From NCBI GenBank assembly GCA_020634555.1, contig JACKBK010000001.1:67317-131316 (forward strand): a DNA stretch of 64,000 nucleotides. The letters are read 5' to 3'. Of this stretch, positions 22,160-64,000 are shown one piece after another. The first letter of the stretch is position 1; every line of letters begins with the position of its first letter. Both the position numbers and the translations under genes were made by a program. This DNA is from Caldilineae bacterium. GTDB lineage: Bacteria > Chloroflexota > Anaerolineae > JAAEKA01. The notes beneath the pieces are model-generated. The model saw nothing but the letters and a program-made list of their open reading frames with translations, was not told where the DNA came from and searched no databases.

Positions 22160-22232
22160 CAGGTCGCACTCGTCACAATGTGCAAAGCGGTAAGTTGTTC
22201 CTGAACCGCTTTCACTACGGTTTGTTCCTCCC

Positions 22233-22268: not shown

Positions 22269-22601
22269 CGGCGGCGAGTGATAAAAAATGGCATTATAGA
22301 TGCTGCAATATTTGACTTATAGAAGTACGTAACTCTTGACAGATGGAGTCCAGTTTTCCCGGCAGACAAGGGGAAGTAGGGAGGTTATACTTGATACAGA
22401 AAGTACATAGTTCCGAATCTGGGTTGGGTAGGCTTTCTACGCGGTCTCTGGTAGCAGGGCCGTCAACATGATTTCTCTGCACCGGGGGTTCTGGATTTGA
22501 GCCATACCGCCCTGACTATTCGGCACTTACTGTCGGTTGGATCATTTTAGAGCGGAGGTTGCCCATATAGTTCGTGCCTGAAACACGAGAAGGAGGGTTC
22601 C

Positions 22602-31386: not shown

Positions 31387-31668
31387 ATGGAGCTAACGAT
31401 GAATGGACTAACCACCCTCACACTGGTAACTGGCAGCACTGTGACAATACCTGTGCCCGCAGAACTGCTGTATCGACAAGTTGAAGTGACCATCGTGCCT
31501 GTTGAAGAGAGTGGAGATTGGCGAGACTTACCACCAAACGGAACGGCGGTAGCTGCGCTATTGCAGGAGTTGGCAACGGCTGGCGGCGTTCAGAGCATTG
31601 AGGATCCAGTTGTCTGGCAACGCGAACAGCGGCGCGACAGGCCACTTCCGGGGCGTGAACGTCAATGA
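31387..31668 (+). CDS. Type II antitoxin (VapB-like) partner of the downstream PIN toxin
   Basis: Small ORF whose TGA overlaps vapC ATG (ATGA); likely true start ATG 31399 (GGAG SD); low GC like vapC. Confidence 0.5.
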   Translation: MELTMNGLTTLTLVTGSTVTIPVPAELLYRQVEVTIVPVEESGDWRDLPPNGTAVAALLQELATAGGVQSIEDPVVWQREQRRDRPLPGRERQ

Positions 31669-32060
31669 TTCTGCTTGACTCCAATATCATTATCTATGCA
31701 ACTCAACCAGAGCATTCATTTCTCTTGGAGATGATGCGAGACCGTTATGTGTTTGTTTCCACGATCACCAAAGTGGAAGTATTGGGGTATCACAAGCTGA
31801 CGACCACAGAACGTAGTTCATTGGAGAATTTTTTCCGCAACACGTTTCAGTTACCAGTTACGGCTCCGATCATCGACCGCGCGATCCATATTCGCCAGAA
31901 GCGCAAGATTGGACTTGCCGATTCCTTGATTGCTGCAACCGCGCTGGTCCACTCTGTTTTATTGGTCACGCGAAATACAGTTGACTTCATTTGGATACCG
32001 GATCTTCAAGTGCTGAACCCATTCCAAGATCAAATCCCCAACGATGAAGCCAGTGCTTAG
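31665..32060 (+). CDS. vapC: PIN-domain ribonuclease toxin VapC
   Basis: MILLDSNIIIYA (Asp at position 5) ... ADSLIAATALVHSVLLVTRNTVDF: canonical PIN acidic residues; about 42% GC versus about 65% background. Confidence 0.8.
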   Translation: MILLDSNIIIYATQPEHSFLLEMMRDRYVFVSTITKVEVLGYHKLTTTERSSLENFFRNTFQLPVTAPIIDRAIHIRQKRKIGLADSLIAATALVHSVLLVTRNTVDFIWIPDLQVLNPFQDQIPNDEASA

Positions 32061-49577: not shown

Positions 49578-51347
49578 TCATCCGTTCCGATCCGCACTAT
49601 CCTCCACATTTGCGGTTTTGCCTGTACGCGCGCGGGCTGCGACCAAGTCCGCCATCAGGCGATCCAGCTTGGAGTCCTCGCCCAGAACGATCAACGTATC
49701 ACCCAGTTCGACCGGCCTGCCCGGCGGCGGATTGAAGCGCGCCTGGTAGCGTACCTGGCCGTTCTCCGTGAACGTTTCGATGATACCGATGACGTTCAGG
49801 TCGAAGCGATTGCGCACCCGCAGATCCACCAATGTCTTGCCGGCCCACTCTCGCGGTACCGGAATGCGGCGCACGCTATAGCCAGGCAGCACCTGGCGAG
49901 CGTCGTAAGTCTCCCGCTGTGTCCGGTAGATGTTGTTGTCATGCACCAGCAGGATACTGACCAGCAACACCACAAGTCCGGGTATCATAAACTGCGAGCC
50001 AAACGCCTCGACAGTGAACAACACCGCCGCCAGCGGCACGTTGACCAGCGCGCCCAGGCTGGCCGTCATGGCCGGCACCACCAGGATCGACGCCGGAATA
50101 CCGGTGATGGGAGCCAGCACAGCCGCCACCATCGTGCCAAAGTAGATGGAAGGAATCAGCAAGCCCGCGGAGCCGCCAGAGGTGATCGTCGCCAGTGTCG
50201 CAACCAGCTTGGCAACCAGCGCAACGATGGCCACCCCCGCGGTCAACTGTCCCAGCGTGGCGGCTTCAATAGCGCTGTCTCCCGTTCCCAGCACCAGTGC
50301 GAGATCCCTGCCCGTCAGTTGCACAGCGATGAGTGCCGCGACCCCGGTCAGCAGCGCGCCCGTGAGATGGCGCACCCAGACATTGCCAATCCAGGTGTGA
50401 AACCAGTGCTCACTGAGGGCGCGCAGGCGGGTAAACAAGATACTGATCACCGAGATGATCACCGCCATGCCTATCAACACCCCGTAGTAACGCACCGTAA
50501 ACACCGGCCGGGTCGTGATGGTAATCCGGAAGAGCAGCGGGTGACCGGTGACAAGATTCGTCATGAAATAGGCCACCAACGCGGCGATCAGCGCAAAGAG
50601 CAGCTTCTCGATGATCGGCCGGCGGCGATACATGACCTCGATGGCGAAAAATGCTGCTGCAAAAGGCGTTCCCAGCAGTGTGGCTACCGCAGCAGCCACG
50701 CCGGCCAGTTGGGCTGTCTGCAAGTCATCGGGGTCGTCGATCCGCCACCATTTGCGCAGGCGATCAAGATAGCCCGCTTCAGCCGGCAGATGGAACTGGG
50801 GACGCGGCTTGAATACACCTGCCGCCAGGCTCTCACCCACCAGCGTCACGCTGGCCTCCAGACCGCCGCTGCCGCCGCTGCCCAGCGTAAACAGAGTTGC
50901 CAGAAACTTGCGCGCTGCCAGACTGAAGGTCGGCAGATCCCAGCGGGCGTCCACACCCACCTTGCCCAGCAACACCTGCTCCATAACCGGCTCAGACGCG
51001 AAATAGAGGGCGATGGCTCGCTCCAGGCCGTCGCCCTCTACATCGTTGAGCGGATGAACGATCCCCTCGCGGTCGCGGTAGTGAATGGTGCGATAATGAA
51101 AGAGCACCACCACGGTGGTGCCCAGCGCGCCCAGCGTCAATGGCACCAGAACCAGCGCCAGAACCGGCAAGCGCTCGACGCCCGCAATAATTGTGTCAAA
51201 GAGCCAGTGAACCGAGGTCTTCAGAGTGAAGGTAACCGCCCACACCACCAGACCGATCACCGCGACCTGCACTACCAGCCGCCGCTCGTGGGCGTTGAAG
51301 TTGCGCGTGAACGCGCTGATCGGTCTGCTGAGGCGGGACGCAGTCAC
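49578..51347 (-). CDS. ClC-family chloride channel / H+-Cl- antiporter with C-terminal TrkA-C (RCK_C) domain
   Basis: ClC selectivity-region motifs (GSGGSGG, GGSAGLLIPSIYFG, GTPFAAAFFAIEV) and C-terminal VDLRVRNRFDLNVIGIIE ... GDTLIVLG RCK_C-type domain. Confidence 0.7.
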   Translation of the reverse strand: MTASRLSRPISAFTRNFNAHERRLVVQVAVIGLVVWAVTFTLKTSVHWLFDTIIAGVERLPVLALVLVPLTLGALGTTVVVLFHYRTIHYRDREGIVHPLNDVEGDGLERAIALYFASEPVMEQVLLGKVGVDARWDLPTFSLAARKFLATLFTLGSGGSGGLEASVTLVGESLAAGVFKPRPQFHLPAEAGYLDRLRKWWRIDDPDDLQTAQLAGVAAAVATLLGTPFAAAFFAIEVMYRRRPIIEKLLFALIAALVAYFMTNLVTGHPLLFRITITTRPVFTVRYYGVLIGMAVIISVISILFTRLRALSEHWFHTWIGNVWVRHLTGALLTGVAALIAVQLTGRDLALVLGTGDSAIEAATLGQLTAGVAIVALVAKLVATLATITSGGSAGLLIPSIYFGTMVAAVLAPITGIPASILVVPAMTASLGALVNVPLAAVLFTVEAFGSQFMIPGLVVLLVSILLVHDNNIYRTQRETYDARQVLPGYSVRRIPVPREWAGKTLVDLRVRNRFDLNVIGIIETFTENGQVRYQARFNPPPGRPVELGDTLIVLGEDSKLDRLMADLVAARARTGKTANVEDSADRNG

Positions 51348-51373
51348 CCATTGCCTCCGACGCGGAACAGCGT

Positions 51374-53209
51374 CTACGCCGCGAGCAGCGCTTCCAGACG
51401 GTCCAACAGGCCGGACAACACCTGATAGGTTTCTTCGACCGGCTGAGGAGAGGACAGATCAACGCCGGCCAGCTTGAGCGAGTCAAGCGCGTACATCGAG
51501 CTGCCGGCGCGCAGGAACTTGCGGTAATCCTCGGCCGCGCCGGGCGTCCCTGACAGAATCCGTCGCGCCAGCGCGTTGGCGCCTGAAATGCCTGTGGCGT
51601 ACTGGAAAACGTAGTAGTCGGTGTAGAGGTGCGGGAAGGTGGCCCACTGGATGCCGACACGTTGGCGGTCGAGATATATCTCGTCGCCGTAGCCCTCGGC
51701 GAAGAGATCGGCAAACGTATCGATCAACTCGTCTGCCGTGACCCCTTCACCCCGTTCGATGCGTTGGTGCATCTCCAGTTCGAAGCGCGCCAGCGTCGGC
51801 ATGACCAGGAAGTAGCGATAGAAGTTGCTCATGGCCTCTTCGATGATCGCAATCTGAAGATCGCGCGGCAGGTCGATGTTCAACAGATAGCCTCGCATCA
51901 TGGCCTGATGGAAGTTGGACGCTACCTCGGCCGCGAAGATGGTGTAATCGCTGTAAAGAGGTGGCTGGTTCTGCCAGACATGGTACGAGTGCATGGAATG
52001 GCCAAGCTCGTGGGCAAGAGTCCCCAGGTCGCCCGAGTCGTCGGTGTAGCTCATCATGATGAACGGGAACGTGCCAGGCGAACCGGACGAGAACGCGCCG
52101 TTGCCCTTGCCCTTGTTGGGGTAGACGTCGATCCAACGGTCCTGCAGACAGCCCTGGCGCATCACCTGCACGTAGTCCTCGCCCAGCGGAGCCAATGCGT
52201 CACAGATCCAGTCCACTGCTTGCTCGAAGGGAATACGCGGTGGATCCTGCACCAGTGGCGCCCAGATGTCGTAGGGATGCAACACCTCGACGCCCAGCGC
52301 CTTGCGCCGCAATCGCCAGTAGCGATGCCACGTTGGGAGGTTCTTGCGAAAAGTGTCGATCAGATTGGTGAAGACCGCTGTCGGGATGTTGTCCTCGAAC
52401 AGCGCTGCTTCCAGGGTCGACTCGTAGCGTCGAGCGCGCATGTTGAACACCGACTTGCGGACGGAGGTGGCAAGATTGCTGGTCAGCGTGTTCTTGTAAG
52501 CCAAATAATTGTCGGCATAGCTCTCCCAGGCTGTCCGGCGCGCCTCACGGTCGGCGCCGTGCATAATACCCACAATGGTGCTCTGTGAGACGGGCAGCTC
52601 GTTGCCGTCACTGGTCAGCGCGGGCTGGAACTGGAGATCGCTGTCGGTCAGCGCGGAAAAAGTGTTGTAGAGACCACTGAACGGATCCGCTGCCAGACCC
52701 AGCAGTTCCTCCACCTCCGCCGAGCGTACATGTTGCTGCTGACGGAACAGGTTGTCTACGTAGTGGTCCAGCACGGCCAGGCGCGGCTCCGCCGCGATCC
52801 AGCCGTCCAGAGTCTCGCGGCCAATAGCCAATAGCTCCGGGTTGAGGAATGAGACAGCCGCCATGACGCGGCCGGCCAGTCCCTGTACCTTGCCCATACG
52901 CGCGCCGGCCGCCTGGTCGGTAGTGTCCACCGCGTAGTCCATGCCGGCGTAGACGTACAAAACGCCCAGGCGCTGCCGCGCGCTCTGGATTGCGTCTACG
53001 GCATCGGCCAGCGTTGCCGGGCCGTCGGCCAGCCGGCCGGAAAACGCGCTGACGCCTGCCAGCGCGTCGCCGAGACTCGCCAGTTCTGCCTCCCAGTCCG
53101 CATCAGTCGCGAAGACGCTTTCACGGTTCCACTTGTACTGAGCTGCGATCTGGTCACGGGTTCTAAGTTGATTGCTTGCCACAGGGGGATATCCTTCCAG
53201 GTTAGTCAT
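51374..53209 (-). CDS. pepF: Oligoendopeptidase F (M3B metallopeptidase)
   Basis: 611 aa; HELGHSMHSY zinc motif and downstream Glu; M3B-length and conserved C-terminal helices. Confidence 0.85.
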   Translation of the reverse strand: MTNLEGYPPVASNQLRTRDQIAAQYKWNRESVFATDADWEAELASLGDALAGVSAFSGRLADGPATLADAVDAIQSARQRLGVLYVYAGMDYAVDTTDQAAGARMGKVQGLAGRVMAAVSFLNPELLAIGRETLDGWIAAEPRLAVLDHYVDNLFRQQQHVRSAEVEELLGLAADPFSGLYNTFSALTDSDLQFQPALTSDGNELPVSQSTIVGIMHGADREARRTAWESYADNYLAYKNTLTSNLATSVRKSVFNMRARRYESTLEAALFEDNIPTAVFTNLIDTFRKNLPTWHRYWRLRRKALGVEVLHPYDIWAPLVQDPPRIPFEQAVDWICDALAPLGEDYVQVMRQGCLQDRWIDVYPNKGKGNGAFSSGSPGTFPFIMMSYTDDSGDLGTLAHELGHSMHSYHVWQNQPPLYSDYTIFAAEVASNFHQAMMRGYLLNIDLPRDLQIAIIEEAMSNFYRYFLVMPTLARFELEMHQRIERGEGVTADELIDTFADLFAEGYGDEIYLDRQRVGIQWATFPHLYTDYYVFQYATGISGANALARRILSGTPGAAEDYRKFLRAGSSMYALDSLKLAGVDLSSPQPVEETYQVLSGLLDRLEALLAA

Positions 53210-54111
53210 TCAAGTGCGCCGGCCACCAGGCCAGCCAATCGGTCGGCGATCTCCTGCACGATGGCGTCCGGGACACCGTCCACAGCCTGCGCTTGCAGCC
53301 GCAAGTCGATCTGGTCGTTGACGTAGTCCACCGCCAGGAATTTGTCGTCCAGTGTCAGTGCGATCTCAGTGGAGAAAAGGTGCAGGTTACAGACATCGCT
53401 GATGCGGACAGCCATGTCATAAAGCGCGCCCAAGCCATAGCGCACCACATCTTCCTTGGTAACAGGGTGGTAGACGTGGGTTTCCGGCGGCCACCAACTG
53501 ACAAAAACCTCCCCAACGCAGTAGATGACGCGGAACCAGGCCGGCCGGCCTTCCAGCAGTTTCGGCTCGACATGCGCCTGCACCAGATATTTGTCTTCAG
53601 GGAAAAGCTGGCGTGCTTGCTGCACCTGATCGCGATTGGTCGCCTCCAGCACCACCCCCTGACCGCCGCCGCCCAGCGCCGGCTTGATCGCAAAGCTGTC
53701 GCCCAAGGGTGCCAGATCGAGATCAGGAAGCTGTGGCTGCTCGGAAAAGGGCGCCAGGATAATGGTGTAGGGCGTGTGCAGGCCGGCGCTGATCAACTCA
53801 AGATGCATGGTGGCCTTGTCAGCGCTATACGATTCCTGCTCGTGGGGATTGACTCGAAACGCCCCGTTGTCACGTGCCCAGCGCACCAGGCTCAGGAACC
53901 TCGAGTCGGTGTCGGCTGCCCGGTTCATGAAAGATCGAAAGACAAGCTGGCCAGCAGCTAGTGCTTCCGAAACAGTTTCGAGATTGTCAGGTGTGATCTC
54001 AAGAACAGACAGGCTGCGGGCCTCGCAAGCCTGTCTGAAAAAGCCGATGAAGCCGGCATCGTGATGCCAGTTCCATGCTACGGCTACGTCGAATTCTGTC
54101 ATATTCACCAA
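53206..54111 (-). CDS. ATP-grasp fold protein (RimK/GshB-like ligase of unknown substrate)
   Basis: DKATMHLELISAGLHTPYTI ... FAIKPALGGGGQGVVL ... YLVQAHVEP ... FRVIYCVGEV ... AVDYVNDQIDLRL: ATP-grasp motif order; stop overlaps pepF start by 4 nt. Confidence 0.55.
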   Translation of the reverse strand: MVNMTEFDVAVAWNWHHDAGFIGFFRQACEARSLSVLEITPDNLETVSEALAAGQLVFRSFMNRAADTDSRFLSLVRWARDNGAFRVNPHEQESYSADKATMHLELISAGLHTPYTIILAPFSEQPQLPDLDLAPLGDSFAIKPALGGGGQGVVLEATNRDQVQQARQLFPEDKYLVQAHVEPKLLEGRPAWFRVIYCVGEVFVSWWPPETHVYHPVTKEDVVRYGLGALYDMAVRISDVCNLHLFSTEIALTLDDKFLAVDYVNDQIDLRLQAQAVDGVPDAIVQEIADRLAGLVAGALE

Positions 54112-54232
54112 CCCGGCAGCGCGTCAAAAGGCGGCATCTTCTGCCTGCGCGCGGCTTGCTGTTGTTTGTCTTCTGAATCAAAGTCCGCCTGGAACGTCAG
54201 TTGCTGTTCCAGACGGACTTACGGACTACAAC

Positions 54233-54430
54233 TTAGGCTTGCTTCTTCAGCACCGGGAGTCCGTTCTTGCTCTCCGAAACCTGGTAGCCCTCGGGCACCT
54301 CATCCAGCGCGCCTTCCTTGGCTTCCTTGCCGAAGTAATAGATCTGCTGTTCCCGGCCACCCTTGAGGATTGTCTTCTTACCATGCAAGACATAGGTAGA
54401 TCCCTTGGAGTTTGTGTAGGTGTAAGGCAT
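54233..54430 (-). CDS. Small conserved hypothetical protein (65 aa)
   Basis: Strong AAGGAG SD; MPYTYTNSKGSTYVLHGKKTILKGGREQQIYYFGKEAKEGALDEVPEGYQVSESKNGLPVLKK; followed by a hairpin. Confidence 0.4.
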   Translation of the reverse strand: MPYTYTNSKGSTYVLHGKKTILKGGREQQIYYFGKEAKEGALDEVPEGYQVSESKNGLPVLKKQA

Positions 54431-54625
54431 TGTCAGTCTCCTTGCTGTTGGTTTCTGGTGACCCCCGCACTTGCATCGATGCAACAGGGGTTGCCGGTTA
54501 TCTAGTTCGACAACGAACTGTCCGCGCAATTATGCCACAAGATCGCCGGACAGGAAAACTGATGAACGGTAGGCATAGATGACAGTCACTTTCCGCAACT
54601 GGCAGTCATCTACGCAATGGTGGTT

Positions 54626-56005
54626 TCAGGACGCGCCGCCCAAAACAACGTCCAGCGCTTGGTTCAGTGTGCGCACACCGATCACCTGTATGCCGTCCGG
54701 AGCGGCAATCGCCTTGCTTCTGCCCTTTGGCGCCAGGCAGCGCGTAAAACCCAACTTGGCTGCCTCGTTGAGCCGCCGCTGTAGTTGGCTGACGCTGCGC
54801 AGCTCGCCGCTCAGGCCAACCTCGCCCACCACAGCCAGGTCGGCCGGCACAGGAATGTTCTTCAGGCTGCTGGCAATGGCCGCGGCGACAGCCAGATCAG
54901 CCGCCGGCTCGCTGATGCGCAGCCCACCGACCACGTTGACAAACAGGTCCTGGTCGCTGAGGCGATACCCCATGCGCTTGCTCAAGACCGCGGTCAGCAA
55001 CAGCAGCCGATTGAAGTCAACGCCGTTAGCGGTGCGCCGCGGCTGGGGGAAGCTGGTGGTGGAGGCCAGCGCCTGCACCTCGACCAGCAGCGGGCGGGTG
55101 CCTTCCATGGTCACAGCAATGGAAGACCCGGCCGCGTTGGGTAGCCGCTCGGCCAGGAACGCCTCCGACGGGTTCGCAACCTCACGTAACCCTGCCTCCA
55201 CCATCTCGAAGACGCCCACCTCGTCGGTGGAACCAAAGCGATTCTTGACGCTGCGCAACAGGCGGTAGGTTTGGAAGCGCTCGCCCTCCAGATAGAGCAC
55301 CGTGTCTACCATGTGCTCCAGGACGCGCGGCCCGGCGATGGATCCCTCCTTGGTGACGTGGCCCACCAGGAACATAGGCATCCCCTGTCCCTTGGCCAGC
55401 CGCAACAACTGCGCAGCGCACTCGCGCACCTGGCTGACGCTGCCGGCCGCTGACTGCGAGGCGTCGGAGAAGATCGCCTGGATCGAGTCGACCACCATCA
55501 GCGCCGGCGAAAGCTGTCCGGCGTGATGCAGGATGTTCTCCAGGTGTATCTCGGCGTGAACGTAGAGATTCGCCTCCTCGATACCCAGCCGGCCGGCCCG
55601 AATCTTCAGTTGGCGTGCGCTCTCCTCGGCACTGACATACATCGTATTGCCCTGAGTGCGCGCCATATCAGCCGCCAGTTGCAACAGCAACGTGCTCTTG
55701 CCGATGCCCGGATCGCCGCTTACCAGGACAACGGAACCGGGCACGATGCCGCCGCCCAGCACGCGGCTCAACTCGCTGCCTTTGACAGGTATTCTGTCCA
55801 GCCCGTCGGACGAGATGTCAGGCAGGGGCTGCGGCGCGCCTCCGGCCTCCAGTGGCATGACGGAGCGCGCTCCGCTGGACGGCGGCTTGACGATCTGGCG
55901 TTCTACCAGTGTGTTCCAATCGCCGCAGTCGGGACATTTCCCCATCCACTTGGGCTGGGCACTCCCGCAAGTTTCACAAACGTAGCGAACTCTGATCTTT
56001 GCCAT
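54626..56005 (-). CDS. radA: DNA repair protein RadA/Sms
   Basis: N-terminal zinc ribbon CETCGSAQPKWMGKCPDCGDWN; RecA-like ATPase GDPGIGKSTLLLQ; KNRFG motif; C-terminal Lon-protease-like domain. Confidence 0.9.
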   Translation of the reverse strand: MAKIRVRYVCETCGSAQPKWMGKCPDCGDWNTLVERQIVKPPSSGARSVMPLEAGGAPQPLPDISSDGLDRIPVKGSELSRVLGGGIVPGSVVLVSGDPGIGKSTLLLQLAADMARTQGNTMYVSAEESARQLKIRAGRLGIEEANLYVHAEIHLENILHHAGQLSPALMVVDSIQAIFSDASQSAAGSVSQVRECAAQLLRLAKGQGMPMFLVGHVTKEGSIAGPRVLEHMVDTVLYLEGERFQTYRLLRSVKNRFGSTDEVGVFEMVEAGLREVANPSEAFLAERLPNAAGSSIAVTMEGTRPLLVEVQALASTTSFPQPRRTANGVDFNRLLLLTAVLSKRMGYRLSDQDLFVNVVGGLRISEPAADLAVAAAIASSLKNIPVPADLAVVGEVGLSGELRSVSQLQRRLNEAAKLGFTRCLAPKGRSKAIAAPDGIQVIGVRTLNQALDVVLGGAS

Positions 56006-56144
56006 GATATTGCCGGTTTCAATCGCCAGGAACGGTCGAGGTCTCGTTGCAGCACTAGAACAATTGTACTTATCACCAGGGGATGCGTCAAACAAAAACC
56101 GGGCACCTGTGTGCCCGGCTGTTGGAGCGAAATCTCGTGCGGTA

Positions 56145-58376
56145 TTAACTCCCCGGCTGGTGGCAGGAAAGGCACATTTCGTTGGAATAGCCCTCGTGGT
56201 TGCTGGGGAACGGCTTGACGCTGCCGGTGTAGTGGCAGGTCAAGCACTGGTTTTCCTGGCCCGTGATGTCGTGTGGTATCTCAGGAGCGCTGGCGGCGGC
56301 GGCACCATCGTCGCCCGAACTTGTGTCACCTGAGCTTGTGTCGCCCGATGCCACCGGCAGGTGACATTGCAAACACATGTCGCTGGTTCGGCCAGTGTGG
56401 TCAGCGGGGAAGGGCTTGACGCCGTTTTCGCCGTGGCACAGCACACAGTCATCGCGGCCTTCCAGTGGATGCGGCACGCCAGGTATGCCGGTCGATTCCT
56501 GGGCGGCCGTCGTGGCGGTTGGTTCCGGTGTTGCTTCCTGAACTGCAGTTGCCACTGGTGTTGCAGAGGCCGGCGCCTCGGTCGCGGCCGGCGCTGCATC
56601 AGAAGCCGGCTGATGGCACATCTGGCACTGGTCAACCGTGCGCCCCTCGTGGTCGGCCGGATATGGCTTGATGCCGCCGGTCGCGTGGCAGGCCAGGCAG
56701 TTGTCACGGCCATCCAGGGAGTGCGGGATAGCTGGCGGTCCGCCGGCCGGCGCCGGTGTCTCAGTCGCGCCAGCTTCGACACTCTTGGGGGTCGGCTCGA
56801 CTGCATCGCCCGGCTCGGCCACCCCGGCCGAAGGCTCGATGGTGCCCGTCACCTGATGGCATTGGGTACACATGGTCACGTCGAAGCTCTCGTGACCGTC
56901 CGGGAACGGATGGACACCCTCTGGACCGTGGCAGATCTTACAGTCGGTGTTGGGACCGATGGGGTGGGGAATTACTTCCGGTGTACCGGATCCGGGCACC
57001 TTGGGCGGCGCAACCAGATTGCTGATGCTGGGGGCGTTCAAACCAACGAACTTCCATTCGGTGGCGTGACAGGCCGCGTTGGAACAAAAGCTGGAGTTGT
57101 CCGTTCCACCGGGGTTGCTCACATCATGGCATTCGGCACAGGATTCATCGAACACATAGCGATGTTGAGCCAGCCAGTTTGAGTTCTTGTGCGACTCAGG
57201 CTCGTTCGATGTATCGAGGTTGATGACCGGCGGCTGCTGGCCGGGTTTCACGATTTCAGGAATCGAGTGGCAGACGTTGCACTCCAGGCGAATAGTCTCA
57301 CCGGTCTCGGTAGTGTGCTTACCGTCGTGGCAGCGGAAACAACCGGGGAAGTCCTTGTGGCCGACGTTGTTGGGGTGCGTCTGCCAGCCCACGGACATGT
57401 CAGGAAAGACCGTCTCGTCAAACATGGTCTTGATCTGGTCGATAGCCTTAGCGACCTTGTCCTGATTGGCTGCATAGTACGCCGGGTAGTTCTGGCTATA
57501 GAACTCATCCAGCCGATCGACGGCGTCATGAGCCTCTTCTACGGTGGCATAAGGCGCACTTAGCAGACCCGCTCCCTTGGCCTTGATGTAAGGCATGTCC
57601 TTGTCGATCTGGCCGGTGTTCAGCGCGACATCCATCGAGTCGTTGGGTGATCGGAAGTTGTGCGAGATTCGATTGTGGCAGTCGATGCAGTCCATACGCT
57701 TCAACTCAGCAGCGTTGACCTCACCGAAATCAGGCGGCAAACCAGCCTCGGAATCAAAATACTCGGTGACCGTTCCATCTTTGGCGACCGACTTGACGTA
57801 CGGAATAGTCTGCTTGAGTGGATCGTCCGTGTAGAAATAAACCTCACTGTCGATGTGCCAGTGAATGCCCTTGCCCAGACCCTGCTCCTCCTTGCCGCCG
57901 CCTGTTTTGAAGGTCATGTAGTAGCGTTCTTCGCTGTTGGTCTCGTCCGTCAGGAAGCGGCTGAACTGCTCAAACGTGTCAAAGGAGAACTTGTCCGGGT
58001 TGTGGCATTTCTCGCACGTATCACGCGCCGGTTTCAGATTCTTCACGTAGATCGGGGGATCATAGGTGTTGAACAACGCGTTGGTGACATGAGTGATCTC
58101 TTTGGCTTTGGCAGGCACTGCTTGGCGAAAGCTATCCTGACCAAGATGACAGTCAACACAGGCGACGCGCGCGTGGGGAGACACCTGATAGGCCGTATAT
58201 TCCGGCGGCATGGTATGGCAGGTCGTGCCGCAGAACTCCGGGCTGTTGGTATACTCCCAGGCAGTCGCACTGGCAACTACTGCGAAGCCGATAACAAACG
58301 CAAAAACGGCCAGACCCAGCACCCAGGCCAGCCAGCGTGGTATAGAGCGGAACCAACTGAAAAAACGATTTATCAT
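56145..58376 (-). CDS. Membrane-anchored multiheme cytochrome c: NapC/NirT/CymA-type quinol-dehydrogenase N-terminus fused to a long multiheme extension (about 16 CxxCH motifs) with repeated diheme modules
   Basis: N-terminal TM plus EFCGTTCH ... ACVDCHLG (NapC/NirT family); heme sites CEKCH, CIDCH, CFRCH, CNVCH, CAECH, CKICH, CTQCH, CLACH, CQMCH, CVLCH, CLQCH, CLTCH, CLSCH; four C-terminal repeats of IPHxLxGRxxCLxCHxxGGxKPxPxxHEGxxxxxCxxCHQP separated by P/T/A/E-rich linkers. Confidence 0.85.
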   Translation of the reverse strand: MINRFFSWFRSIPRWLAWVLGLAVFAFVIGFAVVASATAWEYTNSPEFCGTTCHTMPPEYTAYQVSPHARVACVDCHLGQDSFRQAVPAKAKEITHVTNALFNTYDPPIYVKNLKPARDTCEKCHNPDKFSFDTFEQFSRFLTDETNSEERYYMTFKTGGGKEEQGLGKGIHWHIDSEVYFYTDDPLKQTIPYVKSVAKDGTVTEYFDSEAGLPPDFGEVNAAELKRMDCIDCHNRISHNFRSPNDSMDVALNTGQIDKDMPYIKAKGAGLLSAPYATVEEAHDAVDRLDEFYSQNYPAYYAANQDKVAKAIDQIKTMFDETVFPDMSVGWQTHPNNVGHKDFPGCFRCHDGKHTTETGETIRLECNVCHSIPEIVKPGQQPPVINLDTSNEPESHKNSNWLAQHRYVFDESCAECHDVSNPGGTDNSSFCSNAACHATEWKFVGLNAPSISNLVAPPKVPGSGTPEVIPHPIGPNTDCKICHGPEGVHPFPDGHESFDVTMCTQCHQVTGTIEPSAGVAEPGDAVEPTPKSVEAGATETPAPAGGPPAIPHSLDGRDNCLACHATGGIKPYPADHEGRTVDQCQMCHQPASDAAPAATEAPASATPVATAVQEATPEPTATTAAQESTGIPGVPHPLEGRDDCVLCHGENGVKPFPADHTGRTSDMCLQCHLPVASGDTSSGDTSSGDDGAAAASAPEIPHDITGQENQCLTCHYTGSVKPFPSNHEGYSNEMCLSCHQPGS

Positions 58377-58491
58377 GAAGAGCGTCCTAACAAAGCAGTG
58401 CGGAGAATATCACAATTGGCAGGCAATATATCATTCTTAATACCCTCTGTCAAATGGAATCACGCACATTTTCACCGATCCAATCGCCGTC

Positions 58492-59157
58492 TCACTCCTG
58501 TCCAGACAAAAAGACACCGATGTGGTTCTTGACAGCGTAGGTTGCTAGTTCAATACGGTTTGCCAAGTTCAGCTTGCCAAGCAGCCCGCTGACGTGGTTG
58601 CTGACGGTCCGTTCGCTTATCATCAACGCATCGGCGATCTCGCGGTTGCTTTTTCCCTGTGAGACCAGCTCCAACACCTCTATCTCACGGCGTGAGAGAT
58701 TTTGAAAAGCGCTGCCGCGCGCCCGCTGCTCGGTGAGACGAAACTGCTGCAAGACACGTTGAGTCACCCTGGGGTCAAGCAAGGCTTCGCCCCGCCGCGC
58801 CGCCTCGACAGCTCTCACGAGCTCCTGGCTTCCCACCTGTTTGAGCACATATCCCGAAGCCCCCGCCATGATCGCCTCCTTGATCAGCGCATCATCGGCG
58901 TACGAGGTCAGGATCACGACTTGGGTATCGTGACTCGTTGCACAGATCTGGCGACACACCTCAACACCGCTCATGTCAGGCAGGCGAATGTCCAGCAACA
59001 CCAGGTCGGGCCGCAGTTGCTTGCAAAGAACAACAGCCGCGTGGCCGCTCCCTGCCTCACCGACCACCAGGACATCCGGGAGTTCCTCGAGTAGCGTCGC
59101 TAAACCGAGTCGAACGACCTCATGATCATCGACCAACAGAACGCGCAGCTTCTTCAT
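58492..59157 (-). CDS. NarL/FixJ-family response regulator (REC + LuxR HTH)
   Basis: MKKLRVLLVDDHEVVRLGL ... PDLVLLDIRLPDMSG ... LSRREIEVLELVSQGKSNREIADALMISERTVSNHV; ATG overlaps the kinase stop (ATGA). Confidence 0.85.
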   Translation of the reverse strand: MKKLRVLLVDDHEVVRLGLATLLEELPDVLVVGEAGSGHAAVVLCKQLRPDLVLLDIRLPDMSGVEVCRQICATSHDTQVVILTSYADDALIKEAIMAGASGYVLKQVGSQELVRAVEAARRGEALLDPRVTQRVLQQFRLTEQRARGSAFQNLSRREIEVLELVSQGKSNREIADALMISERTVSNHVSGLLGKLNLANRIELATYAVKNHIGVFLSGQE

Positions 59158-60572
59158 GCCATGTCCTCCCATGGAACAGCAATCTGTACGATGGTGCCGC
59201 GCGGCTCGCGTGGCTCGATGAGCAGACTGCCACCCAATATGCGCGCTCTGTCGCGCATATTTCGCAACCCGAAGCCAGTCTGGTAGTCGCGATGAGAAAA
59301 GCCAACCCCATCGTCGGCAACCGCCAGCTTCAAGTGGCCGTTGTGCTGCCTGGCTGTAATCCAGACGTGGCGCGCCTGGGCGTGCCGGGCAACGTTGTTC
59401 AACGCTTCATTCATGATGGCAACCACATGCGCGGTGCGGGCAGGTGAAAGCGACTCGCTGTCATCCAACGTCACAGCAACACTTACCTCGGCCAGGGATT
59501 GCAGATAGGGATCATTCGCCAGTCTATGCAGCTCAACCTCCAGGTCCGAGGCAGTCGCGGCTGGTTCCAGTTCAATGATAAACTGGCGTAGGTCGCGGAC
59601 CGCTTGCTGCAACGCCACGACGACTCGGTCGACACGCGGCGCCAGGGGATCCTCCTCCTGCATACGTTTGCGGACCGACTCGGCGATCAGTCCCGCGGAG
59701 TAGACCGTCTGAATTGCACCGTCGTGAAGCTCGCGGCTGATGCGCTGCCGCTCTGCCGTCAGGATCTGTGCCAGTTCCATATCCTCGATTCGCCGATCGA
59801 CTTCCACATCGAACACGAGCAAACCGCGCACGATGGCAATCAGCAGCACGAGCCCGGCTGTTGACCTGAGCACCTCGACGGGAATACCAAGCATCGCAAC
59901 GATCAATTGCGCATTGAGCGTATTGGCCGGAAAGAAAACCGCCGCCGGGCCCAGAAGACCGGTCAGTACAGCATAGACAAACAGGCTTATGCTGGCAACC
60001 TCGAAGTTGCGGCCGATGCGTTGATAGCCGGGAACCTGCACAGGCAAATGTGCCTGACGCCACAACGCCAGCGCAGCGACCAGCGCACCGGTGAATCCCA
60101 ATAGATACCTTGCCCAAATATTGGCATATAGAACCAACTGTTTTGGTGGCCAGAGTGAAACCTGGCTCTCCCAAAGAAACACAGTCGTCCAGCCCAACAA
60201 CAGCAGTCCTGGAACGGCAATGGTCCATCGCAGTCTGGGGACAAGGGAACTCAATAACACGACACCAAACTGAAACAGGCAGAAGAAAGAAAACGCCAGC
60301 AAAAAAACCTGAGCCATCAACAAGACATCAACCCACGCCGGACTCAGGTAGGCCGCCTGAAGCGGGATGAAGATGATACCCCATTCGTGAAGGCCGTGAA
60401 TCAATCCGAAGGCGCCTAGCCAGCCAAGACTGCGCGCCAGATCAAGCCGGCTGTGCCTGCGAGACTGCCAGAAGATGGCCAATCCGAGCACGAAGAACAC
60501 CTGGCCGTAAATGAACAACACGATGGTTCGATTTAGCTCGAACCAGTTGCGCATGAGCTCCATTGCAGGCAA
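59154..60572 (-). CDS. Membrane sensor histidine kinase (HisKA_3 + HATPase_c), partner of the downstream LuxR regulator
   Basis: Seven predicted TM helices, H-box ELHDGAIQTVYSAGL, ATPase NEALNNVARHAQA ... DDGVGF ... GFGLRNMRDRARILGG. Confidence 0.85.
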   Translation of the reverse strand: MPAMELMRNWFELNRTIVLFIYGQVFFVLGLAIFWQSRRHSRLDLARSLGWLGAFGLIHGLHEWGIIFIPLQAAYLSPAWVDVLLMAQVFLLAFSFFCLFQFGVVLLSSLVPRLRWTIAVPGLLLLGWTTVFLWESQVSLWPPKQLVLYANIWARYLLGFTGALVAALALWRQAHLPVQVPGYQRIGRNFEVASISLFVYAVLTGLLGPAAVFFPANTLNAQLIVAMLGIPVEVLRSTAGLVLLIAIVRGLLVFDVEVDRRIEDMELAQILTAERQRISRELHDGAIQTVYSAGLIAESVRKRMQEEDPLAPRVDRVVVALQQAVRDLRQFIIELEPAATASDLEVELHRLANDPYLQSLAEVSVAVTLDDSESLSPARTAHVVAIMNEALNNVARHAQARHVWITARQHNGHLKLAVADDGVGFSHRDYQTGFGLRNMRDRARILGGSLLIEPREPRGTIVQIAVPWEDMA

Positions 60573-60799
60573 ATTATATGTTCAGTTGAGCGAATGTGCC
60601 AAGCACCTGGTGAATTTGCGTTGATCACCTAGAAAAAACAGGCTGACCTTGCCTTGTGGCGCGCACACATATCCTGTAGACTTGAGTTAGCCGTTGTCTA
60701 TCATCCGGCACGGATCGCGAACTTGTCCCGTGTTTCGCTTCAAGTTAGAACACATAGTCAGCCAGCTCGCAACTGGTCGATCGGGAGGTCATGATAAAA

Positions 60800-61285
60800 A
60801 TGAACCAGCAACGCCAGCCAGATGAAATGCCCCAGACACAAGCGCCTGACCCGGGGCGACGCCAGTTTATCACATACCTTCTGGGTTTCTCTGTAGTCGC
60901 GACCGTTGTAGGCGTTGCTACGCCGATCGCGGGCTACCTTTGGCCGCCCATACGATCTTCTAGTGACACAGGGGGCCGAGTTCCTGTGGGCACGACCACC
61001 GAAATTCCCGTCGGTCATGGCGAGGTAGTTGCTGTGGACGACAAGCCGGTGGTCGTTGTAAACACCGAACAAGGTGGCATCAAGGCATATTCGGCGATCT
61101 GCACCCATCTTGGTTGCATCTCGAAATGGGATCCACAACGCCAGGTGATTCTCTGTCCATGCCACGACGGACGGTTCAACCCGGTAAACGGCGCGGTCAT
61201 ATCCGGCCCGCCGCCTACTCCGCTGCCTGCATATCAAGTGTCTGTTGAAGGCGACACGATTTTTGTGAGCGACTCGCAGGCTTGA
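60800..61285 (+). CDS. Rieske [2Fe-2S] subunit of a cytochrome bc/b6f-type complex (Tat signal)
   Basis: RRQFITYLLG twin-Arg motif; cluster boxes CTHLGC and CPCHDGRF; GGGAGG SD 11 nt upstream. Confidence 0.85.
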   Translation: MNQQRQPDEMPQTQAPDPGRRQFITYLLGFSVVATVVGVATPIAGYLWPPIRSSSDTGGRVPVGTTTEIPVGHGEVVAVDDKPVVVVNTEQGGIKAYSAICTHLGCISKWDPQRQVILCPCHDGRFNPVNGAVISGPPPTPLPAYQVSVEGDTIFVSDSQA

Positions 61286-61310
61286 TCTGCTGCCCTCAGG
61301 GAGACAGACT

Positions 61311-62408
61311 ATGGAAGCACAAGACAGCCGCTCTCGTCGCATCTGGAACTGGTTCGAGGTGCGCTATCGCGTAGGTACGGTTGCCAACGCGATGGTGCAT
61401 GTGAAGATTCCCAGATCAGCGCGTACATTCTATTTCGGCGGCATCACGATGTTCTTCTTCATGGTACAGGTTATCACCGGTGTGCTGCTGGTAATCTACT
61501 ACCAGCCTACACCCGATGCAGCCTACGGCAGCATCCTGTTTATCATGAACGAAGTGAGCTTCGGCTGGCTGATTCGCAGCGTCCATTCCTGGAGCGCGAA
61601 TCTCATGATCCTGTTCTGCGTGCTCCATCTGCTACGAGTATTTTTCCAGGGTGCATATAAACGTCCGCGCGAGGTTACCTGGGGTGTAGGCTTTGCCTTG
61701 CTGGCGCTAACGCTGCTGTTCGGTTTCACCGGCTATTTGCTGCCGTGGGATCAACGAGCCTACTGGGCAACAACAGTCGGCACCGAGATCGCTGGCGCCC
61801 TGCCGATTGTGGGCAGCGCGCTGGACCTGTTGTTGCGCGGTGGAAGTGACATCACCGCACGCACGCTAAGCCGCTTCTTCGGCGTCCACGTGTTGGTTCT
61901 GCCACTTTCAGTATTACTTTTCCTGGTGTTACACCTGACGATGGTGCATCAACAGGGCCTTGCCGACCCAAAACGCGAGAACGTCAACGACGAGACTCTG
62001 CCTCCCGGCGACTTCAATCCTGGCAGTCCGGAGAGCAAGCGTCAGTTGCTTCCCTTCTTTCCCAATTACATTCTGGACGAAATCATCGCCTGGTACATCA
62101 TGCTGGCGGCGCTCATCGTCCTTGCCTCTCTGTTTCCTGCCGGATTAGAGGAGGCCGCCAACCCACTGAGCACACCGGCGCACACCAAACCAGAATGGTA
62201 TTTCCTGTTTCTCTATCAAGGGCTGAAGGTAATCCCGCGGATCGTAGGCGTGACGTTGCCGATCGTGGCGGCGGTAGTGCTGCTGTTCCTGCCGTTTTTG
62301 GACCGAAACCCATACATCGCCGCCCGAAGGCGGCCGATCGCCATCGGACTCGGCGTCATCAGCCTTGTCGGCATTATCTCATTTACCATCTGGGGCCGGT
62401 TCAGCTAG
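61311..62408 (+). CDS. Cytochrome b subunit (b6-like, with subunit-IV-equivalent region fused) of the bc complex
   Basis: 365 aa; heme-ligand His pairs in helices B and D (SVHSWSANLMILFCVLHLLRVFF; FGVHVLVLPL ... HLTMVHQQG); PEWY-region replaced by PEWYFLFLYQ; GGGAGA SD. Confidence 0.9.
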   Translation: MEAQDSRSRRIWNWFEVRYRVGTVANAMVHVKIPRSARTFYFGGITMFFFMVQVITGVLLVIYYQPTPDAAYGSILFIMNEVSFGWLIRSVHSWSANLMILFCVLHLLRVFFQGAYKRPREVTWGVGFALLALTLLFGFTGYLLPWDQRAYWATTVGTEIAGALPIVGSALDLLLRGGSDITARTLSRFFGVHVLVLPLSVLLFLVLHLTMVHQQGLADPKRENVNDETLPPGDFNPGSPESKRQLLPFFPNYILDEIIAWYIMLAALIVLASLFPAGLEEAANPLSTPAHTKPEWYFLFLYQGLKVIPRIVGVTLPIVAAVVLLFLPFLDRNPYIAARRRPIAIGLGVISLVGIISFTIWGRFS

Positions 62409-62432
62409 CGCCTGGACGAGAGGATCTTTGCA

Positions 62433-64000
62433 ATGGACGAACAAACCAACTTGCGCCGCCTTGCTCCTCTGTTTATGATAGTAGCGATAGCGCTGCTGAT
62501 TCCGGTGATCGTCAGCGCGCAGGAACAACCGCCGAACATTCCACACCCGGTGGAAGGTCGGGACGCCTGCCTTGTTTGCCACGCTGAAGGCATTGCCGGT
62601 GCGCCTCAGGTACCTGCCAACCACGAAGGACGAACCAACGACATGTGTCGGGCGTGCCACCAGGTCGCCGCAACCGACCAGGGCACGCCGGCAATCAGCG
62701 AGTCGCCAACCGTTGAGACCGCTCAGCCGCCAGCAGCGGAGGCGACCACACCGGCAACACCTGAAACTGGGGAAACTCCGGAGACTGAAGCCAGTCCGCT
62801 GCCGATTCCGCATCCGCTGGAAGGGCACGAGAACTGTATCGAGTGTCATGTCGCGACCGGCGCCACGACGCCCGGCGGTCCGCCGGCAATTCCTCACTCG
62901 CTGGTCGGACGGGACGACTGCCTGGCGTGTCACAAGGATGGGCTGGCCGGCGCCCCACAGATTCCGGCTGACCATGCGGGTCGCACGAACGATATGTGTC
63001 AGGGGTGTCACCAGCCAAGCCAGCCTGTTGTGGCACCAACAGCGACGCGACCGAGTGAGCCTGTCCCAACACCGCTGGTATACCCCAAGTCATCAAATGC
63101 CAACACATGCGTCGATTGCCATGCTACCCTCTCAGGCAATGATCCGGAAATCACCGAGCAGTGGCATCGCAGCGTCCATGCTGAGCGCGGTGTGACCTGT
63201 GCTGACTGTCACGGCGGAGATCCGTCAGCAACGACTGTCGATGCCGCGATGTCACCTGCGGCGGGCTACATCGGTGCGCCTGCCAAGGAAGAAATCCCTG
63301 CACTCTGTGCGAGTTGTCACGCCGACGTCACCCAGATGCGCCAGTACGACCTGCCGACCGATCAATACGCCCAGTATAAAGAAAGTATCCATGGAATGCT
63401 GTTAGCTGAAGGTGATGCCAACGTTGCAACATGCTATGATTGCCACGGCGGACACCAGATTCTGAAAGCCAACGATCCCGCCTCCACCGTTTATCCGGTC
63501 AACGTCCCGGCGATGTGCGCGAGTTGCCACGCAGACGAGACGTTGATGGGGCCATACCATATTCCCACCGATCAATACGCTCTGTATCGCGAGAGTGTCC
63601 ACGGCCATGCACTGCTGGACGAACAGGACTTCCGGGCGCCAAACTGTGCAACCTGCCACGGTACTCACGGCGCTGCACCGCCTGGATTTGAGGAAGTCGC
63701 CAACGTATGCGGCAGTTGCCATTCGGCGACTCAAGACTACTTCCTGAAAAGTCCGCATGCTGAAGCCCAAGGCGAGGACGCTCCTAAGTGCGTGACTTGC
63801 CATGGGCGCTACGATGTCAGCCAGCCGAGTGAAGCCATGTACGAAGGTACAGAACCCAGGCACTGCGGGTCATGTCACGCCTCCGACAGCCCGGAAGGCC
63901 AGGTGGCGCAGACATTCTACAGTGCAATCAACACTGCAGCTCAGTCGTACGACGAAGCGGAGACCGCAATTCAGGCAGCGAAGGGTGTTGGTATGCTTGT
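62433..64000 (+). CDS. Multiheme cytochrome c (at least 12 CxxCH in the visible part), 3' end truncated by the window edge; shares diheme repeat modules with the 56145-58376 protein
   Basis: Signal/anchor MDEQTNLRRLAPLFMIVAIALLIPVIVSA; three N-terminal IPHPxEGRDxCLxCHxxGxAGAPQxPAxHxGRTNDMCxxCHQ repeats; then CVDCH, CADCHGG, CASCHAD, CYDCHGG, CASCHAD, CATCHG, CGSCH, CVTCHG, CGSCH; GAGAGG SD. Not in the supplied ORF track because no stop occurs within the window. Confidence 0.8.
   Translation, partial: MDEQTNLRRLAPLFMIVAIALLIPVIVSAQEQPPNIPHPVEGRDACLVCHAEGIAGAPQVPANHEGRTNDMCRACHQVAATDQGTPAISESPTVETAQPPAAEATTPATPETGETPETEASPLPIPHPLEGHENCIECHVATGATTPGGPPAIPHSLVGRDDCLACHKDGLAGAPQIPADHAGRTNDMCQGCHQPSQPVVAPTATRPSEPVPTPLVYPKSSNANTCVDCHATLSGNDPEITEQWHRSVHAERGVTCADCHGGDPSATTVDAAMSPAAGYIGAPAKEEIPALCASCHADVTQMRQYDLPTDQYAQYKESIHGMLLAEGDANVATCYDCHGGHQILKANDPASTVYPVNVPAMCASCHADETLMGPYHIPTDQYALYRESVHGHALLDEQDFRAPNCATCHGTHGAAPPGFEEVANVCGSCHSATQDYFLKSPHAEAQGEDAPKCVTCHGRYDVSQPSEAMYEGTEPRHCGSCHASDSPEGQVAQTFYSAINTAAQSYDEAETAIQAAKGVGML

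Follow-up and report, generated by a model that had tools for sequence, protein, structure and literature searches.

Background

ImcH (GSU3259) of Geobacter sulfurreducens, reportedly the subject of a study by Levar et al. in 2014, is the Geobacter inner-membrane quinol dehydrogenase of extracellular respiration. In anammox Planctomycetes, multiheme partners replace cytochrome c1/f in the complex of Rieske protein and cytochrome b. Here we analyse a 64,000-nucleotide stretch of the genome of a Caldilineae bacterium (contig JACKBK010000001.1 of assembly GCA_020634555.1; hereafter the window), at the right end of which a 743-residue multiheme cytochrome with an ImcH-type core is encoded beside a two-component system and, divergently, a Rieske/cytochrome b pair followed by a second multiheme cytochrome.

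Several described systems resemble parts of this locus. According to Zhong & Shi 2018 (PMC6295460), ImcH homologs combine an atypical CX3CH heme motif beside the membrane with six CxxCH motifs, Anaerolinea thermophila has such a homolog, and the members from this species and from Intrasporangium carry a single transmembrane helix. In the Geobacter ExtMNOPQ (Cbc6) cluster, genes for 10- and 12-heme cytochromes flank those of a Rieske protein, a cytochrome b and a membrane subunit, and what the cluster does in electron transport is uncharacterised (PMC5877670). Work on PgcA published in 2024 under the phrase "hemes on a string" shows that heme domains on tethers can operate diffusively (PMC11520253). 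In the monoderm metal reducer Thermincola potens the terminal reductase at the cell surface is OcwA, a protein of NrfA fold that acts on iron oxides and, at a slow rate, on nitrite and hydroxylamine (PMC6703420). Large multiheme cytochromes, possibly for extracellular electron transfer, abound in Anaerolineae (bioRxiv 10.1101/2021.08.23.457424; PMC7399161), and Ardenticatena maritima exchanges electrons with electrodes via a different, seven-heme surface protein (PMC5808234). In the literature on Anaerolineae and Chloroflexota we found no description of a linkage between ImcH-like, Rieske and cytochrome b genes, of a shared, copy-number-variable tethered diheme module or of a duplicated OcwA-fold lipoprotein. 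The parts of the locus described below are thus known families; their combination and the tethered-module architecture are new variations on these families.

An ImcH-family cytochrome with a tail of tethered diheme modules

The 743-residue protein (56145-58376, minus strand; open reading frame (ORF) listing, heme motifs and Pfam) is anchored in the membrane by a single N-terminal transmembrane helix at about residues 16-34 and contains 16 heme motifs, namely 14 CxxCH, one CX3CH (C49GTTCH, then xM) and one CX4CH at residue 431. All of its 32 cysteines fall inside these motifs, and in 5000 shuffles of the sequence CxxCH occurred 0.06 times on average and at most twice. An eight-heme core (residues 1-470; 56967-58376, minus strand) is followed by a tail of four diheme modules (residues 469-743; 56148-56972, minus strand).

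The first-pass annotation of this DNA had seen in the N-terminal part a NapC/NirT tetraheme module, a description that holds for the transmembrane helix and approximately the first two hemes, the remainder being part of the eight-heme core. The Pfam profile NNT passes its cut-off but covers positions 9-102 of 174 only, and the NCBIfam models TIGR03153 (NrfH; 66.6 against a cut-off of 134.2) and TIGR02161 (NapC/NirT; 18 against 310.6) fall short of theirs; partial profile coverage and sub-cut-off equivalog scores together rule out a plain NapC/NirT/NrfH tetraheme identity. The sole match in a PDB sequence search was NrfH 2j7a_C (residues 11-108, E 6.6e-8), and the aligned stretch comprises the transmembrane helix, heme 1 with its CHxM and heme 2. 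In this alignment K90 falls on the Lys of "PFKA" in 2j7a_C. A conserved Lys near the quinol site has a functional role in NrfH-type quinol dehydrogenases, and K90 is invariant in both of our homolog alignments (14 and 40 sequences), M56 being invariant in one and at least 90% conserved in the other. The protein therefore shares with the NrfH/NapC/CymA group (2j7a) the N-terminal helix, a CHxM heme 1, heme 2 and an aligned conserved Lys, whereas only about 100 residues align, the hemes number 16 rather than 4 and there is no NrfA partner.

The CX3CH motif starts 15 residues beyond the transmembrane helix, and FC-x3-CH-x-M is present in 86 of 120 close homologs. Heme motifs of the core start at residues 49, 73, 121, 230, 346, 366 and 413, giving intervals of 24/48/109/116/20/47, to be compared with 24/49/106/117/20/38 in GSU3259, where the motifs start at 132, 156, 205, 311, 428, 448 and 486 (PMC6295460, Table S3); the tie to GSU3259 runs through this published table of motifs and architecture rather than through direct alignment. 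Spacing is nearly identical in the one-helix homolog of Anaerolinea thermophila, with starts at 52, 75, 124, 231, 347 and 367 (PMC6295460, Table S3). An exhaustive phmmer search with the first 471 residues against 1.84 billion representative sequences returned 2855 proteins at E <= 1e-3 and 529 at E <= 1e-30. Dozens of these, matched at E 1e-65 to 1e-90 with 34-44% identity, have the canonical ImcH build: 480-525 residues, three transmembrane helices, a CX3CH and 5-6 further CxxCH, with motifs near positions 130/154/203/310/427/447/486. By BLASTP the core is 35% identical over 417 residues (E 5e-79) to P0392, a homolog from a Deltaproteobacteria metagenome-assembled genome (MAG).

Because the heme spacing, the homology to canonical proteins with three helices and a CX3CH, and the NrfH-like N-terminus all point the same way, we regard the membership of the core in the ImcH family as settled at the level of sequence. 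Like Geobacter ImcH it has a membrane-proximal CX3CH and six CxxCH at the same spacing, a NapC/NirT-like character confined to the N-terminus, and 35-44% identity to proteins of canonical architecture. It differs in having one N-terminal transmembrane helix instead of the three that are a feature of the family, an extra CX4CH that provides an eighth heme, a 275-residue tail of four tethered modules and a linkage to Rieske/cytochrome b genes. In the alignments of 14 and 40 homologs, the eight-heme core (residues 1-470, the CX4CH included) is constant and the number of modules after it varies.

The diheme modules occupy residues 469-507, 550-588, 634-672 and 700-739 and follow, over about 40 residues, the pattern [IV]PH-x(4-12)-CxxCH-x(4-14)-PxPxxH-x(4-12)-CxxCH. 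Each offers two extra His for its two hemes, so that bis-His ligation is possible, and Pfam assigns this part of the protein to Cytochrome_C7 (best stretch 579-672), in keeping with c7-like units. The linkers between them measure 42, 45 and 27 residues and are rich in P/A/T/E/G/S. Among the 120 closest clusters, homologs carry 1-6 modules, and neither the length nor the sequence of the linkers is conserved. The motif counts bear out the roughly 16 hemes and the four tandem diheme modules on Pro/Thr/Ala/Glu-rich linkers that had been noted at first pass. A continuous "heme wire of about 16 hemes", as they were then called, is unlikely, since low-complexity linkers of 27-45 residues are too long to hold hemes at tunnelling distance; we reject a rigid 16-heme wire and read the tail as a string of mobile carriers. 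The same annotation had called linker-separated heme domains typical of cell-wall-spanning conduits in monoderm bacteria. We found no established knowledge of this kind, and the characterised example, PgcA, comes from the diderm Geobacter. PgcA resembles our protein in that its heme domains are split by long Pro/Thr-rich low-complexity linkers, tethered diffusion having been proposed for it over a packed chain (PMC11520253, PMC10570954); it differs in being a soluble extracellular protein with three monoheme domains, whereas the modules described here are c7-like diheme units, variable in copy number, on membrane-anchored proteins that would oxidise quinol.

A Rieske/cytochrome b pair with a putative 14-heme partner

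Both subunits of the pair were recognised by Pfam, NCBIfam and sequence motifs. The Rieske [2Fe-2S] subunit (60791-61285, plus strand) has a twin-arginine translocation (Tat) motif RRQF, one transmembrane anchor, CTHLGC at residue 104 and CPCH at 122. Short gene calls in some assemblies raised the question of pseudogenisation, which was rejected: the ORF is intact in all six assemblies compared and the calls vary by start codon only. Cytochrome b (61311-62408, plus strand), a fusion of b6 and subunit IV, has seven transmembrane helices, the His pairs His92/His106 (x13) and His193/His208 (x14), and PEWY at residue 294. The x14 spacing in helix D is typical of b6-type proteins. The heme-ci cysteine is absent, its place, which we take to be that of the Phe in TFYFGG, having no Cys. 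The pair thus appears intact, with all catalytic signatures of a b6-type complex readable in its sequence.

The best NCBIfam match of the cytochrome b is Geobacter ExtP (238.6 bits against a cut-off of 290), ExtQ scoring 27.2 against a cut-off of 150. A conventional bc1 or b6f complex was rejected, given the missing heme-ci cysteine and the lack of a c1/f subunit; no gene for a monoheme c1/f protein is present in the window or the extended locus, as the first-pass annotation had observed for the window. The pair resembles ExtMNOPQ (Cbc6) in having a Rieske/cytochrome b6-type core and multiheme cytochromes instead of c1/f, and its cytochrome b finds its best NCBIfam match there. It departs from that cluster in that its cytochrome b scores below the ExtP cut-off and is fused to subunit IV, that its partner cytochrome has a C-terminal anchor and tethered modules, and that no porin, rhodanese or selenoprotein genes accompany it. 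From the complexes of anammox Planctomycetes the window locus would differ in having no hydroxylamine-oxidoreductase-like or NAD(P) oxidoreductase subunits.

The second cytochrome gene begins 24 nt past the cytochrome b stop, and a consensus scan detected no terminator-like site between the two, in agreement with the earlier reading. The gene (62433-64000, plus strand) runs off the window after its first 522 codons; completed from the overlapping contig L001, described below, it encodes 613 residues with 14 CxxCH. From the N-terminus the protein comprises a signal peptide, 2.5 diheme modules on P/T-rich linkers, a compact nine-heme domain, a helical segment and a C-terminal transmembrane anchor, the helical stalk (about 100 residues, Ala/Glu/Gln-rich) lying with the anchor beyond the window. 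The modules are arranged as a full unit, a half unit with one heme and another full unit, five hemes in all, where three copies had been counted at first pass; that the module is the same as in the 743-residue protein stood up well. The linkers, of about 50, 13 and 32 residues, are again rich in P/A/T/E/G/S, and the modules of both genes are alike even in their DNA (56685-56752 and 62866-62933, 78% over 68 nt). Both membrane-anchored cytochromes, which are the only ORFs with at least two CxxCH in the whole window, bear their modules (four and 2.5 copies) at the end distal to the anchor.

Among the 120 closest clusters of the 14-heme protein, the C-terminal anchor is kept in 119, with 0-8 modules and 7-25 hemes, and in three related loci (L011, L012 and L029) its orthologs also come right after cytochrome b. 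A PDB sequence search gave no significant match. Proteobacterial bc1 operons have the order Rieske-cytochrome b-c1. Since the 14-heme gene holds the position of c1, its product has a C-terminal anchor and its orthologs likewise follow cytochrome b, we propose that this cytochrome would take the place of cytochrome c1/f. A fusion of subunit IV with seven hemes in another locus, L041, was considered as an ortholog and rejected for chance-level similarity, and the nine-heme domain matches a different, eight-heme cytochrome of L041 (E 1e-24).

The extended locus and the decaheme lipoprotein

The first-pass annotation had proposed to look beyond position 64000 for the rest of the second cytochrome, and that sequence was obtained through L001 (GCA_020433915.1), which shows 31 mismatches to the window in an overlap of 12,690 nt and reaches 8.4 kb further. 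The exact cytochrome b protein is found on at least 23 public contigs. Public contigs that carry the locus at 51311-64000 of the window, 99.8% identical, number at least 23; they stem from several NCBI and ENA assemblies, and each is shorter than the window.

Convergent with the second cytochrome gene, L001 carries the gene of a 736-residue decaheme lipoprotein with a lipobox (LLVAC), a Cys/Pro/Glu-rich stalk and an internal duplication of a pentaheme unit. Its ten heme motifs are all CxxCH, with no CxxCK, and each pentaheme half has five invariant non-motif His, enough for bis-His ligation throughout, which leans to electron transfer over catalysis. In its AlphaFold2 model (mean predicted local distance difference test score, pLDDT, 82) a pentaheme core and a bundle of long helices form an NrfA/OcwA fold, with NrfA enzymes, octaheme nitrite reductase, OcwA (6i5b) and the undecaheme protein 6qvm as fold relatives; a PDB sequence search gave no significant match. 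Unlike OcwA and the Carboxydothermus ferrireducens S-layer undecaheme cytochrome (6qvm), to neither of which it shows detectable sequence similarity, the lipoprotein is a tandem pentaheme duplication with 10 hemes, lipid-anchored and stalked.

The family of this lipoprotein comprises more than 5000 clusters, with 50-88% identity across Anaerolineae, Caldilineales and Ardenticatenaceae and with members in MAGs of Abyssobacteria and Myxococcales. Decaheme relatives of about 1260-1290 residues among P0147-P0167 carry Big_2 and other Ig-like domains, P0152 among them coming from a Myxococcales MAG, and homologs of about 1030 residues without Big_2 (P0163, P0170) belong to Candidatus Abyssobacteria, so that the decaheme family is spread outside Chloroflexota. 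In the L001 protein, residues 20-68 (L001:15166-15312), between lipobox and first heme domain, form a stalk with repeated CPExxxCPE and 7 Cys, which is kept in the family consensus and modelled with low confidence by AlphaFold2; it could be a disulfide-stiffened or metal-binding spacer.

Past the lipoprotein gene lies an operon for a nine-heme cytochrome, a Tat-exported 4Fe-4S protein and an NrfD-type membrane protein, the best NCBIfam matches of this module being HmcB/HmcC and HybA/HybB. The gene adjoining it (L001:19366-20298, minus strand) codes for a secreted protein of 310 residues that is anchored by a C-terminal transmembrane segment and matches nothing in Pfam or NCBIfam. The genes called across the 21-kb locus include none for c1/f, NrfA (CxxCK), a molybdoenzyme, a copper enzyme, a Cyc2-type or other iron oxidase, or a porin-like protein. 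The first-pass annotation had held that a c1/f-type partner and an ordinary nitrite reductase pathway immediately downstream would speak for a conventional periplasmic role; the decaheme lipoprotein and the cytochrome-FeS-NrfD module are found there instead. Two further candidates were rejected, an NrfHA nitrite reductase for lack of NrfA and CxxCK, and a porin-cytochrome (Mtr/Pcc) conduit for lack of a porin gene at the 21-kb locus and because the phylum is monoderm.

Conservation of the neighbourhood

In a scan of one genome per GTDB species, at least 542 stretches matched the 743-residue protein, the best at 60% identity, and nearly all of them belong to Anaerolineae, Caldilineales or unclassified Chloroflexota MAGs. 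Of the 80 best loci, 29 have Rieske/cytochrome b within 10 kb, 34-39 the two-component pair, 32 the decaheme lipoprotein and about 20 the NrfD module. If only the 39 loci flanked on each side by 8 kb or more are counted, Rieske/cytochrome b is present in 19, the kinase in 23, the regulator in 25, and the lipoprotein and the NrfD module in 15 each, with at least one of Rieske, lipoprotein and NrfD in 28. In 21 of the 80 loci Rieske/cytochrome b lies directly downstream of the ImcH-like gene on the same strand, with gaps of 14-662 nt, and the ImcH-like protein of these loci has about 570 residues and lacks the diheme tail.

Two Anaerolineales MAGs contain a colinear block of about 16 genes (L041:698-20028 and L070:605-20091). 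It begins with a lipoprotein cytochrome, a cytochrome-FeS-NrfD module and a split CbcL-like pair (a nine-heme cytochrome and an FdnI-like cytochrome b), continues with an eight-heme cytochrome, the ImcH-like gene, Rieske, cytochrome b6 and a fusion of subunit IV with seven class-I heme domains, and ends with kinase and regulator and then the decaheme lipoprotein. One block thereby unites three or four kinds of module that interact with quinone (NrfD-type, split CbcL-like, ImcH-like and Rieske/cytochrome b). The window represents one arrangement of a conserved yet plastic Anaerolineae respiratory island, and the linkage of ImcH-like and Rieske genes outlasts changes in gene order and 40-60% sequence divergence, which argues for functional coupling. 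The arrangement is not rare, and members of its protein families number in the thousands in Anaerolineae; that the cluster is common in nature lowers the surprise and raises its ecological relevance.

Two features of the L041 block stand apart. Three of its proteins, the FdnI-like cytochrome b (8653-9915), the ImcH-like cytochrome (9893-11635) and the subunit IV-heptaheme fusion (12816-14936), end alike in "...L(T/S)xxEL..VIxWIxAGAPEK". This segment may be a PSCyt1-like domain, and by analogy with the diheme module of the window lineage it suggests a shared docking or carrier domain. The eight-heme lipoprotein cytochrome at L041:698-1954 has collagen-like GPxGPx repeats straight after the lipobox, which may be another spacer of a surface cytochrome.

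Proposed mechanism and competing explanations

On balance we think it plausible, taking the explanation as a whole, that the region is the left half of an Anaerolineae respiratory gene island linking the menaquinol pool to an extracytoplasmic network of c-type hemes. Its firmest element, which we consider very probable, is a quinol-oxidising hub made up of the ImcH-family cytochrome and the Rieske/cytochrome b pair. Two quinol-oxidising entry points would stand side by side as parallel routes out of menaquinol. In one, the ImcH-like core, with its NrfH-like transmembrane helix, its CX3CHxM heme 1 and Lys90, would oxidise quinol without a Q-cycle; in the other, the b6-type Rieske/cytochrome b complex would oxidise it through an energy-conserving Q-cycle and pass electrons into the nine-heme domain of the 14-heme protein. 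The diheme modules on both cytochromes most likely serve as carriers that diffuse on their tethers, hemes on a string, extending into the multilayered monoderm wall and passing electrons to partners within it, for which the best candidate would be the decaheme lipoprotein with its two NrfA/OcwA-fold pentaheme halves. The cytochrome, FeS protein and NrfD encoded after the lipoprotein may constitute a third quinone module. Chloroflexota have no β-barrel assembly machinery (BAM) and no lipopolysaccharide (LPS) and possess multilayered envelopes (PMC13319060), so that a porin-cytochrome route is not expected; in its stead, carriers flexible enough to pass through a porous wall would make reasonable sense. 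We infer the direction of electron flow, the tethered diffusion, the partner and the terminal acceptor. That the cluster serves extracellular acceptors is a possibility on which we stay somewhat doubtful. The quinol-oxidising respiratory module of the first-pass annotation is accordingly well founded in the ImcH-family core and the Rieske/b signatures, and the words "trans-envelope" and "extracellular acceptor" attached to it are conjectural.

Several observations weigh against this explanation. The AlphaFold2 model of the ImcH-like core is poor (pLDDT 60), and heme geometry is not readable from it. The linkers are taken to be flexible from their composition only. The ImcH-like gene often shares an operon with Rieske/cytochrome b, and its product could be a subunit rather than a parallel quinol oxidase. 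The lipoprotein finds its best structural matches in nitrite reductases as much as in OcwA, so that it may be a reductase for a soluble acceptor, and its high conservation (50-88% across orders) is unusual for a surface electron conduit. Finally, lipoprotein and NrfD module lie outside the window and are known from the 99.8%-identical contig alone.

The strongest rival in our judgement, and an improbable one, takes up the nitrite reductase likeness: respiration would remain in the wall zone ("periplasmic"), with the lipoprotein as an enzyme for soluble nitrite, hydroxylamine, nitric oxide or a sulfur oxyanion and the tethered modules as local carriers. It has to contend with the absence of CxxCK and with the five invariant non-motif His per half, which allow bis-His ligation on all ten hemes and leave no obvious open site, and with the lack of a molybdoenzyme, copper-enzyme or nrfA gene among the called genes of the 21-kb locus. 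Some lipoprotein homologs, moreover, carry Big_2 Ig-like domains, which are typical of cell-surface proteins, and the literature ties the ImcH family to extracellular acceptors (PMC6295460). A different possibility is suggested by the operon structure, namely that the ImcH-like cytochrome is a structural c-type subunit of one Rieske/b supercomplex, fed by the Rieske cluster or the 14-heme subunit; the three genes share one strand with short gaps in 21 of the 80 loci and are colinear in one operon in L041 and L070. The complex, however, has its own c-type partner after cytochrome b, the 14-heme protein here and the subunit IV fusion with seven class-I hemes in L041, the ImcH-like core keeps an NrfH-type heme 1 (CHxM) and the invariant Lys90, and Geobacter ImcH acts without a Rieske/cytochrome b complex (PMC6295460), and we rank this as the least probable of the alternatives.

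The sequences do not fix the direction of electron flow, and the heme strings could gather electrons from Fe(II), a cathode or a syntrophic partner, with the Rieske/b complex reversed to supply NAD(P)H, or transfer could be bidirectional. The petI bc1 complex of Acidithiobacillus ferrooxidans runs in reverse, reducing quinone for NAD(P)H synthesis, and a Rieske/b complex joined to multiheme cytochromes would suit uphill transfer of this kind. Ardenticatena maritima, a Chloroflexota isolate, performs both anodic and cathodic transfer (PMC5808234). Nevertheless, a gene for a Cyc2-type or other known iron oxidase is missing from the locus, no link of the region to carbon-fixation genes is seen, and ImcH homologs have so far been found in Fe(III) reducers only and implicated in quinol oxidation only (PMC6295460), and we consider inward flow highly improbable, slightly less so than a purely structural role of the ImcH-like cytochrome. 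We retain the two parallel routes out of menaquinol as the preferred explanation. Carried to the whole lineage, it would become a scheme in which diheme "beads" in variable copy number, strung on disordered linkers and attached to two quinol oxidases that are unrelated (an ImcH-type dehydrogenase and the c-subunit of the Rieske/b complex), relay electrons by tethered diffusion through a porin-less, multilayered envelope to a conserved decaheme lipoprotein with a duplicated OcwA-like fold, the Rieske/b branch conserving energy and the number of modules being tuned to envelope thickness; as a general statement on Anaerolineae we find this scheme rather unlikely.

Regulators and flanking features

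Every gene of the first-pass annotation was recovered at its place by ORF listing, Pfam and NCBIfam. Between the two cytochrome operons, Pfam and NCBIfam identify a NarL/LuxR-type response regulator with Response_reg and GerE helix-turn-helix domains (58492-59157, minus strand) and a sensor histidine kinase with HisKA_3 and HATPase_c (59154-60572, minus strand; the start may be at 60554 instead of 60572). The N-terminal region of the kinase, about 260 residues, is polytopic and matched no known sensor domain in Pfam or NCBIfam; it is conserved in the distant loci L041 and L070. The synteny of kinase (23) and regulator (25) across the 39 fully flanked loci fits the regulatory link to the cluster that was suggested at the outset, and this embedded NarL-type system probably controls expression of the cluster.

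Consensus scans placed a sigma-70-like promoter match (TTGACA-17-TATATT, 11/12, with TG; 58425-58453, minus strand) in the 115-nt gap between the response-regulator and 743-residue cytochrome genes, a strong terminator-like hairpin with a 10-pair stem and T-rich tail directly 3' of the latter gene (56097-56120, minus strand), and promoter-like matches on both strands of the intergenic region that separates the kinase gene from the divergent Rieske operon (60573-60790). Rfam and tRNA scans of the window gave no matches.

Elsewhere in the window, G+C falls to 0.555-0.564 at 18-24 kb from 0.59-0.67 over the first 18 kb, and the stretch at 15007-23882 encodes a hybrid kinase of receiver-PAS-HisKA_3 build, a subtilase and two LuxR-type regulators, together with two ORFs of 426-487 residues without a Pfam match (20696-22159 and 22602-23882). 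A gene for a PIN-domain (VapC-like) toxin (31665-32060) has a third-position G+C of 0.53, far below that of its neighbours, and may be horizontally acquired.

Implications for Anaerolineae respiration

Anaerolineae rank with the most abundant uncultured bacteria of sediments, aquifers, activated sludge and anode biofilms, and we know of no electron-export pathway defined for them. The locus and its relatives provide a parts list that comprises an ImcH-family dehydrogenase, a Rieske/b pair with a multiheme partner, a shared diheme module, an OcwA-fold lipoprotein and a two-component regulator. To our knowledge, direct energy conservation at the quinol-oxidation step via Rieske/b has not been shown for extracellular respiration in any model electroactive bacterium, and if the Rieske/b branch of this locus feeds the same acceptor as the ImcH-like route, the arrangement would bear on the energy yield of extracellular respiration. 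Metagenome surveys may be able to use the shared diheme module as a marker. Should the tethered modules function in the proposed way, the concept of hemes on a string would also cover respiratory enzymes anchored in the membrane, and a monoderm phylum.

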